DNA of 64,000 nucleotides, taken from IMG/VR virus record IMGVR_UViG_3300017917_004503, positions 32,001 to 96,000 of that record; one strand, 5' to 3'. Below, one piece after another: positions 10,123 through 27,215 of this stretch (its first letter is position 1; every line of letters starts with the position of its first letter). The notes below the pieces were generated by a model. The model was given only the letters and a program-made list of their open reading frames with translations. It was not told the origin of the DNA and did no database searches. Origin of the DNA: a virus. Position numbers and translations under genes: made by a program.

Positions 10123-10677
10123 ATGGCAGGATTACCACATTATCAGAACTCACTCTCTGCAACCAATAGGTTTGAACCTGTTTACCTCAACCAGTTTGAG
10201 GTAACAGTTATACCACCAGCGGCTGTTTTGGGAGGAGAGATACTTTTACAGCATGTTACCAAAGTAAGTGGCTTATCTTTGGATAAGAATCCTGGATTAG
10301 TTACTCAGAAGTATAAATTCGCTAAAAGAAACTATGCAGGATCTAAACCGGATAATACTTATATGGATCTAAGCTTAAGTTTTACAGTTAACTTGAACGA
10401 TGACAATTCAATGTATGTTTTTAAGACTTTAAGACAATGGAGTGATTTGATCTATAACCCTTTAACCGGTGCAATGGGATTAAAGAACGATTATGTAGGG
10501 ACTTTAGTTGTTTCTATTTATAATAAACAGGGAGATGTTTTCAGAAGGATAACTTGCAGAGATTGTTACCCAACAAAGCCTGTTAATCCTATGAATCTAA
10601 ATTACACCTCGACTGACATTTATAAAATAGATGACATGACTTGGGCGGTTGATTACTGGGAAGATCTATTCTTATAA
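10123..10677 (+). CDS. Tail tube protein (gp19-like), copy 1
   Basis: Directly after sheath; N.FEV, LRQWSDLI, DCYPT..., TWAVDYW tube motifs; about 185 aa. Confidence 0.85.
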   Translation: MAGLPHYQNSLSATNRFEPVYLNQFEVTVIPPAAVLGGEILLQHVTKVSGLSLDKNPGLVTQKYKFAKRNYAGSKPDNTYMDLSLSFTVNLNDDNSMYVFKTLRQWSDLIYNPLTGAMGLKNDYVGTLVVSIYNKQGDVFRRITCRDCYPTKPVNPMNLNYTSTDIYKIDDMTWAVDYWEDLFL

Positions 10678-10694: not shown

Positions 10695-11270
10695 ATGGCA
10701 GGTTTACCACATTTTACAAATTCGAGAGCTGCGATAAACAACTTTGAACCTGTTTATCTAAACCAATTTGAGGTCATTATAAACACACCACCTGGAATTC
10801 CAGATTCCAGCACAACATTTAAAGGTGAGACTATTTTAACCCAACAGGTGAAATCTATTACAGGTTTAGCCGTTGATATTCTTCCGGCTTCTAATGTTGA
10901 GCAAAACTATAAGTTTGCCACAAGGAGATATGCTGGAGGAGAACCTTCAACATCCGATATGACACTCACTATGGAATTTGAAGTTAACTTGAACGATGCA
11001 AATTCGATGACGACATACAAGATATTAAGACAATGGAGTGACTTAATATACAATCCATTAACTGGTGCAATGGGACTTAAGACAGATTATGTTGGATCTA
11101 TGGTTATATCTATTTTTAATAAAAGGGGAGACGTTTTCAGAAGAATCAGAATTCCTTCTTGTTTTTTAAGTGAGGCTATAAATCCAATGGAACTAGATTA
11201 CGAAAACCCTGCTATATACACAGTCAGTACGTCTTGGATATGTGATTACTGGGAGGATCTTTTCCTATAA
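10695..11270 (+). CDS. Tail tube protein (gp19-like), copy 2
   Basis: Clear paralog of 10123..10677 (MAGLPH, FEPVYLNQFEV, LRQWSDLIYNPLTGAMGLK, DYWEDLFL). Confidence 0.85.
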   Translation: MAGLPHFTNSRAAINNFEPVYLNQFEVIINTPPGIPDSSTTFKGETILTQQVKSITGLAVDILPASNVEQNYKFATRRYAGGEPSTSDMTLTMEFEVNLNDANSMTTYKILRQWSDLIYNPLTGAMGLKTDYVGSMVISIFNKRGDVFRRIRIPSCFLSEAINPMELDYENPAIYTVSTSWICDYWEDLFL

Positions 11271-19699: not shown

Positions 19700-22255
19700 A
19701 TGGATTTTATAAACCAAGTGAAAAAATTAAAAGAGCTAACTAAATCACCTGAAGTTAGACAAATCTGCGAGAAATATCTTAGCGGATCAAATGAGGTCTC
19801 AAAGGAACAGGTAGAGGCCGTTATTAATGAACAAGCTACTCCTGATGTTAAGAATCATTGGGATTCGATTGCTCAAGAGCAATTACAGGCTTCTAAAAAA
19901 GCCGCTCAAGCTCTTATGGAATCTTGGGGAGGTTTCGGAAGAGGATCTTCGAATTCTGGTTCTTATAAACCTTCGGTTAAGCAAGAAGAAAACACTTCAG
20001 CTCTTTTAGAGAATCTTAATACTATATCGATTGAAGATAACAACGCTAAATCTTTTGTTGAAGCTCAGAACTTAAAAAATCTTGGGATCTTAGAATCTAT
20101 TAACAAGATTAAAGGACTTTCTATTTCTGAATATCCTAAAGTTAAAATAGTTTGTGAGCAATACTCTAACTTAATCGTTAACAAAAACATTCCTGAGTTT
20201 TCTTTAATCAATGGATTTATCTCTGAAATGGAGTCTTTTAAATGGGACGTATCTATATTACCAGTCATAGAAAATCTAAAAGAAAAATCTTCTAGATTTT
20301 CAAGAGAAATCGAAGTTGCTAAAGTTATCGAATCTATAAAAACTAGTGGATCAGCTTCTTTTTATTCTGACTTGTCAGAATCGCTAAATTCTTGGTTAAT
20401 CTCTGAAAATAAATCCTCTGGATTATTAGCAAAAGAAATTAGTAAATGGTCTTTCAATCCTGTCGTTAGAAATCTAATCAATTTCTTAAATGCTAATGAA
20501 GCAAGTAACACATCTAAGCTGGAGTTACCTGTGAATGCTCAAAACGAGTCAAGGGTTTCTAGAATTTTTTCACCTATTTTAATCGAAGGTGAGACTACAT
20601 ATTTCACCGCAGGAAAGAGTATCTTCCAAATTAAAGATAGCTCGATAAAAAGATTAAATGAAAAAGAGATCGCTTCAGTTCCAGGAGAGTATATTTCTTT
20701 GGTTAACGCTTGTTTAAAACCTTATGTTCAAATTTCAGAAAGCGGAGTTAAAATATCTCTAGGTAAGAAATCTGTTAGCATTATCGAAGAGAAAGAAGAT
20801 GTTTCAGTTTATCTTGGTAAATCTAGATTAAACTTTAGATCAGTTGCAGAACTTGCTAAAATACTTGGTCTTGAATCTAGCAGCCATTTCGGAGTAAATG
20901 AGTCACAAGTAGTTGGAGATATTCTTAACATCTATACTAACTTCAGAAATATAGTAGAGCTTGATTTCGCTAAAAACATTTCGTCTAATATCTACGAAGG
21001 TGTTTCGGTTAATCTTATTAAATGGGATAATAATATCTTCTTACAGAGAATAAACGATGCAATGAGAGAAAATTCTGTTTATAAAGTTAATGGATCTCAA
21101 GCCGTGAAAATGGTTAAAGATTTCTTAAGATATGACATATCAGAGGGCTTAACTGAATTCTTGGATGGAGAACAGAAGATCAAGTCTATTATGGTAAATG
21201 ATAGAACTAAGGTCCTTGAAAACATCTCTCGTGTTGAATCAGAAGTTAACAAACTAGAGACATTGATGGAAAGCAATCCTCTTTATGCTGCTTCAAAGGA
21301 AATAAAATCAGCTCATGGATTATTAACCAGTGAACTTTCAGTTCTTAGAGAAAAATGGAATCAGATTAATCTTGAGATCTCTAAGATAGAATCAGAACCT
21401 AATATAGTATCAGATCTTTTTGAAGATCAAAAATTCAATATTGGCGATCTAGTTAAAATTAAAGAATCAGGTGAAACCGGAAAGATTATTTCTGTTGATG
21501 GAAGTTCTGGCAGATATACAATCCTTTTAGACAATGGAAGAACTTCGGATTACATGGTTAATGATATAGTTGATCTTGAAGAAGCATTAGCTCAAGCAGC
21601 AGAAAGAAACGAAGAAAAAGCTGGTGAAGATAGATCAGAGGAAGAAGGATCAGAAGAAATGAAGGAGTCAAACAACCTCAATAAATCTAATCTTTCAATC
21701 GAAGAACAGAAAAAACTTTTAAAAACTTTTTCAACAGGTCATTCTTTTTCTAAAGCTCCAGAAGACGAGAACGAAGAAATAGAAATGGAACTTGATAGCT
21801 TACATGGATACAATGTAACTATGAATGAAAAGAATCAAACAACAGCTAAAGCACCAGGCGATAGTAAATTAGAATCAGGTAAAGATGCTAATAAAAAGAA
21901 TCTAGCAACTGCACCAGGATCTCATAAAAAAGAAAAGGCAAAGGCTGAAGGTGAAGATTTATTAAGCGATAATGCACCTGAAACTAAAAAGAAAACCGAA
22001 TTTGATGGTAAAGATGCTGAAGGATCTAAATATGAAATCGGATATAACATCAGAGAAGGTAAAGCCGAAGACGAGGGTAATATGGTAGAAGCTCCTGAAA
22101 AGGGGAAAAATGCTAAAGAAACAACTGCTAAGGGTAACTTAGAAAAGATGATGAATTTGGCCGAGGCTCCAGGTAAAGAAGGTAATATTGATTTCGAAGT
22201 AAACGATGAAATGGGATATAACATTCAAGAATCCGACGAAGTAAAAAAAAACTAA
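19700..22255 (+). CDS. Large putative prohead core/internal protein with KOW/SH3-like domain and repeated acidic C-terminal cassettes
   Basis: GATATATA at 19669; many [ILM]-x-E sites; FNIGDLVKIKESGETGKIISVD; ends in slippery A9 run. Confidence 0.55.
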   Translation: MDFINQVKKLKELTKSPEVRQICEKYLSGSNEVSKEQVEAVINEQATPDVKNHWDSIAQEQLQASKKAAQALMESWGGFGRGSSNSGSYKPSVKQEENTSALLENLNTISIEDNNAKSFVEAQNLKNLGILESINKIKGLSISEYPKVKIVCEQYSNLIVNKNIPEFSLINGFISEMESFKWDVSILPVIENLKEKSSRFSREIEVAKVIESIKTSGSASFYSDLSESLNSWLISENKSSGLLAKEISKWSFNPVVRNLINFLNANEASNTSKLELPVNAQNESRVSRIFSPILIEGETTYFTAGKSIFQIKDSSIKRLNEKEIASVPGEYISLVNACLKPYVQISESGVKISLGKKSVSIIEEKEDVSVYLGKSRLNFRSVAELAKILGLESSSHFGVNESQVVGDILNIYTNFRNIVELDFAKNISSNIYEGVSVNLIKWDNNIFLQRINDAMRENSVYKVNGSQAVKMVKDFLRYDISEGLTEFLDGEQKIKSIMVNDRTKVLENISRVESEVNKLETLMESNPLYAASKEIKSAHGLLTSELSVLREKWNQINLEISKIESEPNIVSDLFEDQKFNIGDLVKIKESGETGKIISVDGSSGRYTILLDNGRTSDYMVNDIVDLEEALAQAAERNEEKAGEDRSEEEGSEEMKESNNLNKSNLSIEEQKKLLKTFSTGHSFSKAPEDENEEIEMELDSLHGYNVTMNEKNQTTAKAPGDSKLESGKDANKKNLATAPGSHKKEKAKAEGEDLLSDNAPETKKKTEFDGKDAEGSKYEIGYNIREGKAEDEGNMVEAPEKGKNAKETTAKGNLEKMMNLAEAPGKEGNIDFEVNDEMGYNIQESDEVKKN

Positions 22256-22503: not shown

Positions 22504-22863
22504 ATGGCTAAGGATTACGTAAAAAATAGCGATCTAATGGTTGCTATAATAGAATCAAAAAAAGCAGGCAAGCTAACACCCGATGCCATTGCTATGTTTG
22601 GACTTATGATACAGGGAATATCAAAGAAAATGGCATATAAGGATCCAGAAGATAAAGAGGACTGTATGGCTTTTGCTATGGAGGATCTTTGCAAATATTG
22701 GGATAGATTTAATCCTGAAAAATCAAATAACCCTTTTGCTTATTTCACACAAATTGCAAAAAATGGATTTGCAAAGGGATGGAAAAAAATACATCCACCA
22801 AAAAGTCCAAAAACTATACCGTTTAGTCATATTACAGGAGAAGATAACACATATAACATCTAA
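22504..22863 (+). CDS. Late-transcription sigma factor (T4 gp55-like), short form
   Basis: YVKNSDL and FNPEKSNNPFAYFTQIAKNGF gp55 signatures. Confidence 0.85.
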   Translation: MAKDYVKNSDLMVAIIESKKAGKLTPDAIAMFGLMIQGISKKMAYKDPEDKEDCMAFAMEDLCKYWDRFNPEKSNNPFAYFTQIAKNGFAKGWKKIHPPKSPKTIPFSHITGEDNTYNI

Positions 22864-22865
22864 AG

Positions 22866-23351
22866 ATGACCGATATTAAAAAGGTAAAACCTAATGGAGA
22901 GTATAAGTCTGGTTTATATGAACCACAAAATCCAGAAAAGTACATAGGAGATATTCACAATATCATATTTAGATCGTCTTGGGAATATAGATTTTGTGTA
23001 TACTGTGATACTAATGAATCAATATTAAAATGGAGTTCAGAACCTCTTAAAATACCGTATTACAATCCTCTGGATAAAAAGGAACATGAATATAATGTTG
23101 ACTTTTATGTCAGAGTTTTAAAAGAATCTGGTGAAGAACAAGAGTGGATCTTAGAGATTAAGCCCGAAAGACAAACAAAAAAACCGGTATTTGAAGGAAT
23201 AACTACTTTACAGAAACTGAAATCGTATAATCATAATATGCAGATCTGGATTACGAACCAATCTAAGTTTAAAGCTGCAAAACACTGGGCTGAGAAAAGA
23301 GGTTTTAGATTTGGTGTCGTTGATGAAAATTTCTTATTTAAGAGTAAATGA
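22866..23351 (+). CDS. Head completion nuclease (gp4-like, TnsA-like fold)
   Basis: PQNPEKYIGD..NIIFRSSWE, KWSSEP, IPYYNP.D, VDF, EIKP, N..KF.AA. Confidence 0.85.
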   Translation: MTDIKKVKPNGEYKSGLYEPQNPEKYIGDIHNIIFRSSWEYRFCVYCDTNESILKWSSEPLKIPYYNPLDKKEHEYNVDFYVRVLKESGEEQEWILEIKPERQTKKPVFEGITTLQKLKSYNHNMQIWITNQSKFKAAKHWAEKRGFRFGVVDENFLFKSK

Positions 23352-23947
23352 TTCCATATTCACAGGAGGTGCTTCAGTATAAGAATTCGTATAAAAATTT
23401 ATCTGAGGTTGTTAGTAAAACTAACTCTAAATTTTCAGAAAAGTATTATAGAGATGCTAAACCCGAGAAACCCTTCTCTCTACCGTTTATACCTGGTCAA
23501 ATTTATAGCTTTTTCTATAAGACAACAAGCAAAATAACTCCGGAAAGAACTTTTATAAACAGAAATCCTGTTGTTCTTTGTACTGAATCTTTTCAAAACA
23601 AAGAAGGTGAGCTTATACTCAAGGGTATAGATTTAATAACAGTTCCTCCTGATTTGAGAATGATTATTCTTGAAAGAATTTATAACAGTTTCTATTATAA
23701 TATAAACCCAGGTTCCTACGAGAACCCAAAACCTATATTGCTTAATCACGAAACATTAAAGAAAATACTTACAGACACTGGATACTCGAGTTCATTATTT
23801 GGTTTTAGAACCAAATTTTTTGGTGAAATCTTTACCGTCGATGTTAAAGATTGGATCATGTTACCCTATCTAACAGAATCACTCATAGAAGGCACGAATT
23901 TACAAGGGATATATACGACATATAAATCGAAATTAATCCGAGAATAA
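23348..23947 (+). CDS. DNA end protector (gp2-like)
   Basis: PGQIYSFFY, P.VL, G.DL...PP..R, DW...LP; follows gp4 as in T4-like genomes. Confidence 0.6.
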   Translation: MIPYSQEVLQYKNSYKNLSEVVSKTNSKFSEKYYRDAKPEKPFSLPFIPGQIYSFFYKTTSKITPERTFINRNPVVLCTESFQNKEGELILKGIDLITVPPDLRMIILERIYNSFYYNINPGSYENPKPILLNHETLKKILTDTGYSSSLFGFRTKFFGEIFTVDVKDWIMLPYLTESLIEGTNLQGIYTTYKSKLIRE

Positions 23948-23962
23948 ACACTAAAAAGAAGA

Positions 23963-25561
23963 ATGGCCGGTTTTGTAAATAATAACGATCCCCAACAGTC
24001 ACCAGTAATTACCAGAATTAGAGATTCTGTGAGAAAGCTGAGCACTTTCGGGATGAAGTATGATGATATGGTCATACGAAACTCTCAGGCAGTTGGTGTT
24101 ACTGAAGCAGCATTCTTAAACAAGAATAAATCCAATGTTGAGGATGAAAGTATGCTATGGACTCTTGCGAAGCAAGATATTACATCAAAGCAGTATGTTT
24201 CATATTTCGATAAAGATTATAAGGGTAAAAGAGATTACCTAAGAAAATTCTCTCTTAATCCTGAAATAGAATGGGTTTTAGACACTGTGTGTGATGAGAC
24301 TATTTCTTACGATCCTGCCAATTTTTTTGCTTATCCTGATTTTTTAGACCTGTCAGACATCAACGAAAAACTAAAGGATTCTCTTTATGAGACGTATCGA
24401 AAACTATATGATGTTTGGGGATTCTCTGATGATATAACTGCATGGCAGTATTTTAGACAATTCCTCGTTGATGGATTTCTTTGTTTCGAAATTATCTATG
24501 ATAATGAGGGAAAGAATATAATAGGATTTAAAGAATTAGATCCTGTTACTATAGTACCTAGCGTAGAAAAGCAAGTAGACGGAAGTTTTTTAAATACCTG
24601 GACCCAATTTCCACAGGATCCAAGAAGAAGACGTGTTCTATATGATCCCCAGATTATTTATATCTCGTATGCTAAGGGCAATTCAATTTCCAGAATAAGT
24701 TATATCGAAAGATTAATTCGTCCTTATAATATCCTTAGAATCATCGAATACACCAGAATTATCTGGTCTGTTATGAATGCTTCTTTTAAATTGAAGATGA
24801 CTGTTCCTATTGGTACTAAATCCCAACAAAAAGGAATGCAAACTCTAGGAGAATTAATGAGCATCTATAAGGAAGACGTTCAATTGAATGATGAAAGTGG
24901 TGAATTGTTTATAGACGGAAGACCTAAAATTCAGTTTTACAAGAATTACCTAATGCCTTCTGGAGTAAACGGAACGCCAACAATTGAACCTTTAACAACA
25001 GAGGGTCCAAACTTAAATGACCCTGCTCCTTTATCATATTTCTTTGATAAGTTTGTACAAGAATCTAAGGTACCTCCATCAAGATTCACTGGTCCAGATG
25101 GAACTAATGCTTCGACCTACACAAATGCTGCTGAGGGATTGGATAAAGAGGAGATTAGATTTGCTAAATTTGTAGAAAGACTTAGATCTATATTCCAGGA
25201 GATATTAACTAAACCTCTGTGGATACAAATGGCTAAAAAATATCCTGAGTTAGAGAAGGACTTTATGTTTAAGAGCCAGCTAGGTCTCGATTATTTTTCA
25301 GATAACCCGTTTAAAATAAACCAAGAAATTGAAGTAATTAATAAAAGAAAAGAATCAGTAACAGCTATGTCAGGTTTACTTGATGATGAGGATAAACCCT
25401 TTTTCTCAGTTCCTTTCCTAATTGAAAATTTCTTAGGAATTTCTAGACAGGATATTGTAGCAAATAAAGAAGCCAAAGAAAGGAAAGAGAAGGAGAAAAA
25501 GAAAGATAGTAAAAAAGATGAAGGCGAAAAAGAGGGTGGAGAGGAAAGCATAACTTTATAA
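23963..25561 (+). CDS. Portal protein (gp20-like), copy 1
   Basis: PEIEWVLDTVCDE, FRQFLVDG, LDP, SYIERLIRPYNILRIIE, VPPSRF, EEIRFAKFVERLRSIF; GATATATA at 23908. Confidence 0.9.
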   Translation: MAGFVNNNDPQQSPVITRIRDSVRKLSTFGMKYDDMVIRNSQAVGVTEAAFLNKNKSNVEDESMLWTLAKQDITSKQYVSYFDKDYKGKRDYLRKFSLNPEIEWVLDTVCDETISYDPANFFAYPDFLDLSDINEKLKDSLYETYRKLYDVWGFSDDITAWQYFRQFLVDGFLCFEIIYDNEGKNIIGFKELDPVTIVPSVEKQVDGSFLNTWTQFPQDPRRRRVLYDPQIIYISYAKGNSISRISYIERLIRPYNILRIIEYTRIIWSVMNASFKLKMTVPIGTKSQQKGMQTLGELMSIYKEDVQLNDESGELFIDGRPKIQFYKNYLMPSGVNGTPTIEPLTTEGPNLNDPAPLSYFFDKFVQESKVPPSRFTGPDGTNASTYTNAAEGLDKEEIRFAKFVERLRSIFQEILTKPLWIQMAKKYPELEKDFMFKSQLGLDYFSDNPFKINQEIEVINKRKESVTAMSGLLDDEDKPFFSVPFLIENFLGISRQDIVANKEAKERKEKEKKKDSKKDEGEKEGGEESITL

Positions 25562-25562
25562 G

Positions 25563-27215
25563 ATGGCAGGATTTTTAGATCTATTTAAACCAAACGAATC
25601 TGCTTTAGGTAACATTCTTAGAAACCTAGGCAAAGTCTCCAAATTTGGGATGGAGTACGATGATATGGTTGTTCGTAATTCTCAAGCAATAGGTAAAAGC
25701 GAAGGATCCTTTTTTAATCAGCAGGGGACTGGGTTTACTCAGGATGATGCTTTTTATTGGACTCTTTCTTATCAGGATACGAAGGTAAGAAAATACATAG
25801 CTTATTTTGATAAGGATTATATTGAAAAAAGAAACTTTCTGAGAAAATTTTCACTCAATGGTGAGATAGAATTTATTTTAGATACTATCACTGACGAATG
25901 TATAACCTATGACGATAGAAATTTTTTCGCAAATCCTTCTTTCATAAATCTTGATTTGAAAGAGAAAATTCTAAATAAAATAACTTCACATTACAATCGC
26001 CTTTATAACATTTTTGGATTTCAGAATTCTATTTTGGCTTGGCAATTATTTAGACAGTTTCTTATTGATGGATTTTTAGCTTTTGAAATAATATACGACA
26101 ACAAAGGAAAAGAAATTATTGGATTTAAAGAATTGGATGCAACCTCTTTGCAGCCAGCAGTAGAAAGAGTTGGTGAAAATGAGTACAAACAATTTTGGAT
26201 TCAATACCCAAAGAATCCTCAGATGACTAGAAAACTCACTAATGAACAGGTTATCTATATTTCTTATGCCAAGGGTAATAGTATTTCCAGAGTTAGCTAT
26301 ATAGAAAGATTAGTAAGATCATATAATATTTTGAGAATCATGGAGAATTCCAGGGTAATCTGGAATGTTATGAATGCTTCTTATAGATTAAAGTTTGTAA
26401 TACCAACTGGAAGCCAGTCTCCTCAAAAAGCTATGCAAACATTAGGACAGTTAATGTCAAATTATAAAGAGGAGATAAGCATAAATGATGCTTCTGGTGA
26501 ATTGACTGTAAACGGAAGACCTAAAGTCCAATTTTACAAAAATTATTTATTTCCTGAAATGAATGGACAATCTCCACAAATTTCATCACTAAATCCTTCC
26601 GGTCCTGATTTTAACGTTATGGAAAATGTTGTTTACTTCTATAATAAGTTAAAAATGGACTCTAAACTTCCTTATGCTAGATTTGCAGCTAGAAGTGCAG
26701 GTCCTTCTAATTATAAGGTAAGTATTGATGCTCTTGAAAGAGATGAGATACGTTTTGAAAAGTTTCTCCGTAGATTGAGATCTATATTTCAAGAAATTTT
26801 GGTTAAACCTCTTTATATACAAATGTGTTTAGATTTTCCTGAATTATCTAGAGATAGAAGCTTTAAGGTTAATCTTGGATTAGATTTTCACAGAGAAAGT
26901 GAATTTGAAGAAATGGTTCAGCTTTCGAATTACACTAAAAGAAGTGAATTTATCAAAGGACTCTATGAATTTAAAATTAAGGCTGGTGATGAGGAAAAGC
27001 CATATTTTGATAATGACTTTCTAATTCAGAGATTTCTAGGTCTGACTCCAGATCAGATTAAAATGAATGAAGAATATAAGAAGAAAGAGGAAAAACAAGC
27101 ACCACAAGCTAAACCTGCCAGTGGAGAAGGCGAATCACCAGAAGGAGAAACGTCAACCCCTCCAGAGGGAGAAGCTCCAGAGGGAGAAGCTCCGGAACCA
27201 GAAGTAACACTTTAA
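25563..27215 (+). CDS. Portal protein (gp20-like), copy 2
   Basis: Same motif set (FRQFLIDG, SYIERLVRSYNILRIME, RDEIRFEKFLRRLRSIF); full length. Confidence 0.9.
   Translation: MAGFLDLFKPNESALGNILRNLGKVSKFGMEYDDMVVRNSQAIGKSEGSFFNQQGTGFTQDDAFYWTLSYQDTKVRKYIAYFDKDYIEKRNFLRKFSLNGEIEFILDTITDECITYDDRNFFANPSFINLDLKEKILNKITSHYNRLYNIFGFQNSILAWQLFRQFLIDGFLAFEIIYDNKGKEIIGFKELDATSLQPAVERVGENEYKQFWIQYPKNPQMTRKLTNEQVIYISYAKGNSISRVSYIERLVRSYNILRIMENSRVIWNVMNASYRLKFVIPTGSQSPQKAMQTLGQLMSNYKEEISINDASGELTVNGRPKVQFYKNYLFPEMNGQSPQISSLNPSGPDFNVMENVVYFYNKLKMDSKLPYARFAARSAGPSNYKVSIDALERDEIRFEKFLRRLRSIFQEILVKPLYIQMCLDFPELSRDRSFKVNLGLDFHRESEFEEMVQLSNYTKRSEFIKGLYEFKIKAGDEEKPYFDNDFLIQRFLGLTPDQIKMNEEYKKKEEKQAPQAKPASGEGESPEGETSTPPEGEAPEGEAPEPEVTL

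Follow-up and report, generated by a model that had tools for sequence, protein, structure and literature searches.

Few features of tailed phages and herpesviruses are as constant as a homododecameric portal encoded by one gene, and it underlies ideas on how heads nucleate, on the 12:5 mismatch in symmetry towards the capsid and the terminase, and on how DNA is gated. T4 and ~2,000 GenBank phages of this portal type carry one portal gene. Here we analyse a locus of an uncultured giant phage, a distant member of the T4 superfamily, in which two full-length portal genes, denoted A and B, instead stand side by side. The window, i.e. the whole stretch of DNA under study, comprises 64,000 nucleotides (nt) and corresponds to bases 32001-96000 of a 151-kb IMG/VR contig (IMGVR_UViG_3300017917_004503; ~52% complete by CheckV). 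On the comparisons described below, we see about an even chance that A and B would co-assemble into a single hetero-oligomeric portal ring. Precedents for such an arrangement come from other virion proteins: in T4 the major capsid protein gp23 and the vertex protein gp24 are paralogs, and the tube protein pb6 of phage T5 combines two fused tube domains in a pseudo-hexameric trimer. It is general knowledge that in these cases a duplicated virion protein occupies neighbouring non-equivalent positions, lowering the symmetry. Neither case is a portal, and the T5 domains are fused in one chain, whereas the portal copies and the tail-tube copies of the present phage are separate genes. As for T4 itself, the clip strands of the portal protein gp20 form the only main-chain inter-subunit sheet (PMC4493910), and a twelve-to-six symmetry step is located where the gp13 dodecamer meets the gp14 hexamer (PMC12929629).

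The two portal genes, with lengths in amino acids (aa), are:

23963-25561, + strand: portal paralog A, 532 aa, T4 gp20 type (PF07230 E = 1e-54; PHROG 213)

25563-27215, + strand: portal paralog B, 550 aa, T4 gp20 type (PF07230 E = 9e-65; PHROG 213)

The stop codon of A and the ATG of B are separated by one base (25562). Against the Pfam family Portal_T4 (PF07230), whose curated gathering cut-off is 22.9 bits, A scored 186.4 bits (profile positions 7-430 of 433) and B 219.5 bits (6-433 of 433). Each also matched PHROG 213, annotated as 'portal protein', and in the 151-kb contig the two were the only full-length portal matches. Aligned with each other by BLASTP, they are 49% identical with 69% positives over 534 columns (E = 0). 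Both proteins start with MAGF; the low-complexity tail of A is basic and then acidic and closes with EESITL, its last five residues being ESITL, and the tail of B is acidic and rich in Gly, Pro and Ala and closes with EPEVTL (final PEVTL). The sequence of B additionally matched the T4 gp20 entries 3JA7, 6UZC and 9LU6 in the PDB. AlphaFold2 monomers built from 68-sequence alignments gave a predicted local distance difference test (pLDDT) score of 51.0 and 55.5 and template-modelling scores of ~0.4, with only the wing core confident and the stem and clip poorly predicted, and these models are of too low confidence for mapping subunit interfaces. In a Foldseek search with the low-confidence B model, all top matches were T4 gp20 chains, at E values between 1e-16 and 8e-12, and other portals came next. 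By their Pfam and PHROG matches, A and B both belong to the T4-type portal family. A first-pass annotation of the window had described two intact gp20-like genes 1 nt apart, with MAGF starts, E-x(1,2)-[IV]TL ends and a core that is kept yet substantially diverged, and this description stands on each count: the open reading frame (ORF) coordinates and the PF07230 and PHROG 213 matches bear out the first part, the two termini the second, and the whole-profile match together with 49% identity the third.

Compared with T4 gp20 (PF07230; 3JA7, 6UZC, 9MKB and 9LU6/9LU7), A and B are alike in whole-length family match and, by alignment, in domain order; they likewise lie among T4-core head genes (gp4-like and gp2-like) and appear to be late-expressed. 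They differ in that identity to gp20 is only ~20%, and in having long low-complexity C-terminal tails that end in a short hydrophobic motif. The nearest relatives in GenBank are metagenomic huge phages, namely LR756500 (44-46% identity), LR756502, LR745206 and LR756504 (~36%), LR756501 (35%) and Lak (34%); taken together, the portals of LR756501 and LR756502 span 35-37%. The single portal of LR756500 has the MAGF-type N-terminus common to A and B, and the single portals of LR756500, LR756501/LR756502 and Lak carry a Gly/acidic tail closing with a hydrophobic or aromatic residue and come from very large genomes, as here. These phages have one full-length portal and one tail-tube gene, and they branch outside the A+B clade; one full-length portal each was found in LR756500, its IMG/VR relatives, LR756501, LR756502 and Lak-B4. 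Among GenBank phage records, 1276 matched A and 2089 matched B, with a match in a second place, and a partial one, only in LR756501 and LR756503. Smaller portal-like pieces were also encountered: a 342-aa ORF of LR756501 (L167, 142320-142823) matches portal residues 75-264 with 40% identity, and ORFs of 164-190 aa in LR756502 (L168) and LR756500 (L169) match portal residues around 241-336.

Three scans of IMG/VR yielded 228 related loci. At all 228 loci with room for both genes A was followed by B on the same strand, and the exceptions to this order (L067, L068, L106 and L244) are all cut by a contig end. The dereplicated set comprised 85 distinct complete A/B pairs, with both ORFs intact in 85/85 and a gap of 1-23 nt. 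A orthologues were 66-94% identical across related loci, and within each paralog identity falls to ~65% among members of the clade. A maximum-likelihood tree was built from the 170 proteins of the 85 pairs and three outgroups; in it, A was monophyletic (support 0.94), B was monophyletic (1.0), and A and B were sisters (1.0), with the single portal of LR756500 outside; the stem branches of A and B (0.40 and 0.37) and their clade depths (0.45 and 0.42) were nearly equal. Because A and B form sister clades, the outgroups are single-copy and A precedes B at all loci with room, the pair is best read as the product of one duplication at the base of the clade, kept ever since. The conservation of the pair in related genomes, which the first-pass annotation had proposed to examine, is thereby borne out, and its concern that the duplication might be unique to this assembly is contradicted by the 85 distinct complete pairs.

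The ratio of non-synonymous to synonymous substitution rates (dN/dS), calculated by the Nei-Gojobori method for orthologue pairs with 0.05 < dS < 1, had a median of 0.020 for A (n = 36) and 0.014 for B (n = 34). Pairwise protein distances between A orthologues closely followed those between B orthologues (r = 0.96, slope 0.98), and the within-genome A-to-B distance was 0.46-0.53 in all 85 genomes. These values indicate strong purifying selection on both copies, neither of which evolves faster, with the differences between them maintained. The first-pass annotation had suggested this calculation, with one copy escaping purifying selection as the outcome that would speak against its own reading of the pair, a hetero-oligomeric portal (e.g. 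an alternating 6+6 ring) or a second portal-like vertex or alternative heads; instead, both were found to be strongly constrained, and that reading is partly supported. One decaying copy is ruled out by the intact ORFs in 85 pairs and the low dN/dS of both genes, and whole-gene concerted evolution by the A-to-B distance in every genome, exchange being confined to the very C-terminus and to some short wing-core stretches. Such exact A/B wing-core tracts occur in few genomes and reach 44 nt (L126) and 36 nt (L048), compared with a maximum of 28 nt in the cross-genome control.

The domain limits of T4 gp20 (PMC4493910) were transferred to A and B via HMMER alignment to 3JA7, and the resulting order is that of gp20, i.e. 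wing, stem, clip, tunnel loop and crown. A and B share 67% of their residues in the stem helix alpha-5, 57-60% in the wing and 52% in the clip, but far fewer in the crown (31%), the tunnel loop (28%) and the tail (7%). Paralog-specific residues, at least 90% conserved within each paralog and differing between them, occupy 30 columns; 23 of these fall in the stem, clip, tunnel loop or crown, four in the wing and three in the N-terminal region. Of these 30 sites, the outgroup shares the A residue at 7 and the B residue at 12, and at the other 11 it has neither; each copy has therefore departed from the ancestral state, and the split does not support either as the clear ancestral one. Conversely, the clip strands are almost identical in A and B (SGELtvxGrPKxQFYKNYL), and because of this we see, as far as sequence can tell, no insulation against cross-assembly in the clip-sheet part of the interface.

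The C-terminal ends show a pattern of their own. Both proteins end in x-T-[LIF] in 50/85 genomes, and the last six or more residues are often the same within a genome and different between genomes (APEVTL/APEVTL, PPQVTL/PPQVTL and TPAVTI/TPAVTI for A/B). The likeness of the last 18-30 nt of A and B was 0.73 within genomes vs 0.63 across genomes, a value reached in 0/2000 permutations. That the A and B ends are more alike within than between genomes suggests that both tails may serve the same partner; more generally, it suggests that gene conversion acts locally on the ends or that a single partner within the head selects both. Shared-tail regions were noted at 25480-25561 and 27130-27215 of the window and at loci L018, L038, L043 and L044; at L044 the final 21 nt of the two genes are the same, and they belong to a longer stretch that matches if a shift of 3 nt is permitted.

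The portal genes are preceded by a motif resembling a late promoter, and a potential recognition factor is encoded nearby:

23908-23915, + strand: late-promoter-like motif GATATATA, within the 3' end of the gp2-like gene

22504-22863: gp55-like late sigma factor, just upstream of the head genes

The motif lies 48 nt before the start codon of A. All 16 GATATATA sites in the window are on the + strand (e.g. 19669, 23908, 37980 and 41813), and they tend to sit just before structural genes (an 851-aa ORF at 19700, portal A and the protease). The degenerate form RATATATA has 21 matches in the window vs 12.4 expected. Among the related pairs it was present ≤120 nt upstream of A in 84/84, and in the same 84 pairs it was never found inside A or upstream of B. 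The motif may act as a late promoter recognized by the gp55-like sigma factor, and because it stands before A in every one of these pairs and never before B, a conserved bicistronic late A+B message can be proposed. With the motif before A only, the two proteins would be expected to occur together in one cell and at one time.

When the 151-kb contig was compared all against all, only one other duplicated core virion gene emerged, the tail-tube gene:

10123-10677, + strand: tail-tube paralog 1, 184 aa, directly after the sheath gene

10695-11270, + strand: tail-tube paralog 2, 191 aa, in tandem with paralog 1

The tube paralogs are 55% identical and form sister clades with the outgroups outside. 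Both copies were found in 5/5 two-portal genomes (four of them complete, 319-434 kb) and a single copy in 5/5 one-portal outgroups; this co-occurrence of portal and tube duplications reflects one shared branch, and so has the weight of one evolutionary event rather than of a statistical association. In the complete two-portal genomes, terminase and major capsid protein are each encoded by a single full-length gene, which argues against two parallel head/packaging systems and rules out a second full head or packaging module. Fragments related to the capsid gene were observed separately: outside the window, a 151-aa ORF (G000:C1:148322-148777) shares a 49-residue stretch of 55% identity with the major capsid protein, and small ORFs with short capsid-protein stretches also occur in the related complete genomes G002-G004.

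In the mixed ring that we propose, both genes would encode genuine portal subunits, made together late from one bicistronic message, and A and B would join one ring at the unique capsid vertex. The simplest such ring would be an alternating A6B6 dodecamer with six-fold and not twelve-fold symmetry. After the basal duplication, A and B would each have settled on distinct residues where the protein lines the channel or binds partners (stem, clip tip, tunnel loop and crown), and would have remained compatible in the wing core, in the clip beta-strands between subunits and at the hydrophobic C-terminus. When paralogs of a former homomer are expressed together, cross-assembly is the default; because of this, and because the known main-chain interface is conserved, one mixed ring would be the most economical arrangement. 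We infer that A and B are co-transcribed, produced at comparable dosage and co-assembled. Two subunits derived from one duplication and both kept in all members, the pattern by which a paralog-built hetero-oligomeric ring may be recognized, are found here, and the proposed single operon, the symmetric constraint, the conserved clip sheet and the shared C-terminal ends together favour co-assembly over alternative heads. Several observations nevertheless weigh against the mixed ring. Its prior is low, as literature searches (two portal genes, portal paralogs, heterododecameric portal, huge phages) returned no phage case of a hetero-oligomeric portal or of paired portal genes, and papers on phage G and PhiMa05 mention one portal each. 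Furthermore, in distant subclades the end of A is replaced by a Pro/Ala-rich tail while B keeps xFTL, and this loss of the xTL end in A only hints at partly separate roles. Finally, the paralog-specific residues of the clip tip and tunnel loop would fit two separate rings with different partners equally well.

Such an arrangement, i.e. two homo-oligomeric rings with different jobs, is possible but in our judgement doubtful. One would act at the vertex as the portal on which the head nucleates and to which terminase and neck dock. The other would form a second ring, which might for instance extend the channel by stacking on the portal, whether within the capsid or outside it, or might nucleate a second particle population. 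The A/B-distinguishing sites do map to the regions with which T4 gp20 contacts terminase and neck (clip tip) and DNA (tunnel loop), the gene body has never been homogenised, as seen from the within-genome distances in the 85 pairs, and only B keeps the xTL C-terminus in distant subclades. Still, the probable co-expression from a single message and the near-identical clip sheet would make mixed rings hard to avoid, nothing beside the portal pair suggests two head types in complete genomes with one terminase and one capsid protein, and equal rates and constraint would be unusual had one copy gained a new role. It is unlikely that one copy is the structural portal and the other a non-virion helper or decoy, such as an assembly initiator, a ring chaperone or a mimic occupying a host defence sensor of portal proteins. 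Portal-sensing defence proteins of the Avs type exist, and the portal-like pieces in LR756501, LR756500 and LR756502 show portal sequence being put to use in other ORFs, but a helper would be expected to lose or relax some of its parts, to evolve faster and to vary in presence. None of this is seen: both copies keep every domain at full length including channel and clip, with dN/dS ~0.02, and the pair is present at all loci with room. A recent or neutral duplication, a dosage increase or a meaningless assembly artefact is least probable of all, to the point of being negligible. Tandem duplicates arise readily, and the short exact A/B tracts of L126 and L048 show that exchange is still possible. 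However, the copies are only 49% identical, the duplication is older than the whole clade, both genes are intact and strongly constrained in the 85 distinct pairs, and at 30 sites a different residue is conserved in each paralog. As independent assemblies from many samples share the arrangement, and given the universal A-then-B order and the tree, an assembly artefact or recent duplicate can be excluded.

The mixed ring could be part of a more far-reaching arrangement, in which the whole DNA conduit is built at halved symmetry, with an obligate alternating A6B6 portal and a tail tube of two alternating paralogs, the duplications lying on the same ancestral branch. We regard this as a speculative and rather improbable extension; if correct, the twelve-to-six step would be hard-wired into the portal itself. 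Irrespective of the arrangement, a large and widespread giant-phage clade has kept two distinct portal subunits under equally strong constraint since one old duplication. If A and B co-assemble, they would constitute the first hetero-oligomeric portal, accompanied by a doubled tail-tube gene, and the clade would represent a natural experiment on the purpose of portal symmetry; if they do not, a second portal-like ring would be implied. Either outcome would be new, and co-expression of the pair in E. coli could tell them apart.

A T4-like head morphogenesis gene set surrounds both portal genes. Directly upstream of the pair are located:

22866-23351, + strand: gp4-like head-completion protein (PHROG 218 E = 5e-45)

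23348-23947, + strand: gp2-like DNA end protector (PHROG 429 E = 3e-4, a weak match)

Upstream of the gp55-, gp4- and gp2-like genes lie the large terminase, sheath and tail-tube genes. Downstream of the portal pair, genes for a DNA ligase and a clamp loader are followed farther on by those for the prohead protease and the gp23-like major capsid protein. The 851-aa ORF (19700-22255), which is preceded by the late-type motif and adjoins the head genes, gave no PHROG match and only a sub-threshold Pfam match; it is a putative large late protein beside the head genes.

A megablast search of GenBank phages with the DNA of the locus returned no match. At the protein level, 1971 related proteins were found in a large protein collection at E ≤ 1e-50. 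One NCBI protein (P0010), 87% identical to portal A, is deposited under a metagenome-assembled genome of a Chitinophagia bacterium; its source is probably a mis-binned phage contig, and the label provides a weak hint of a Bacteroidota host.

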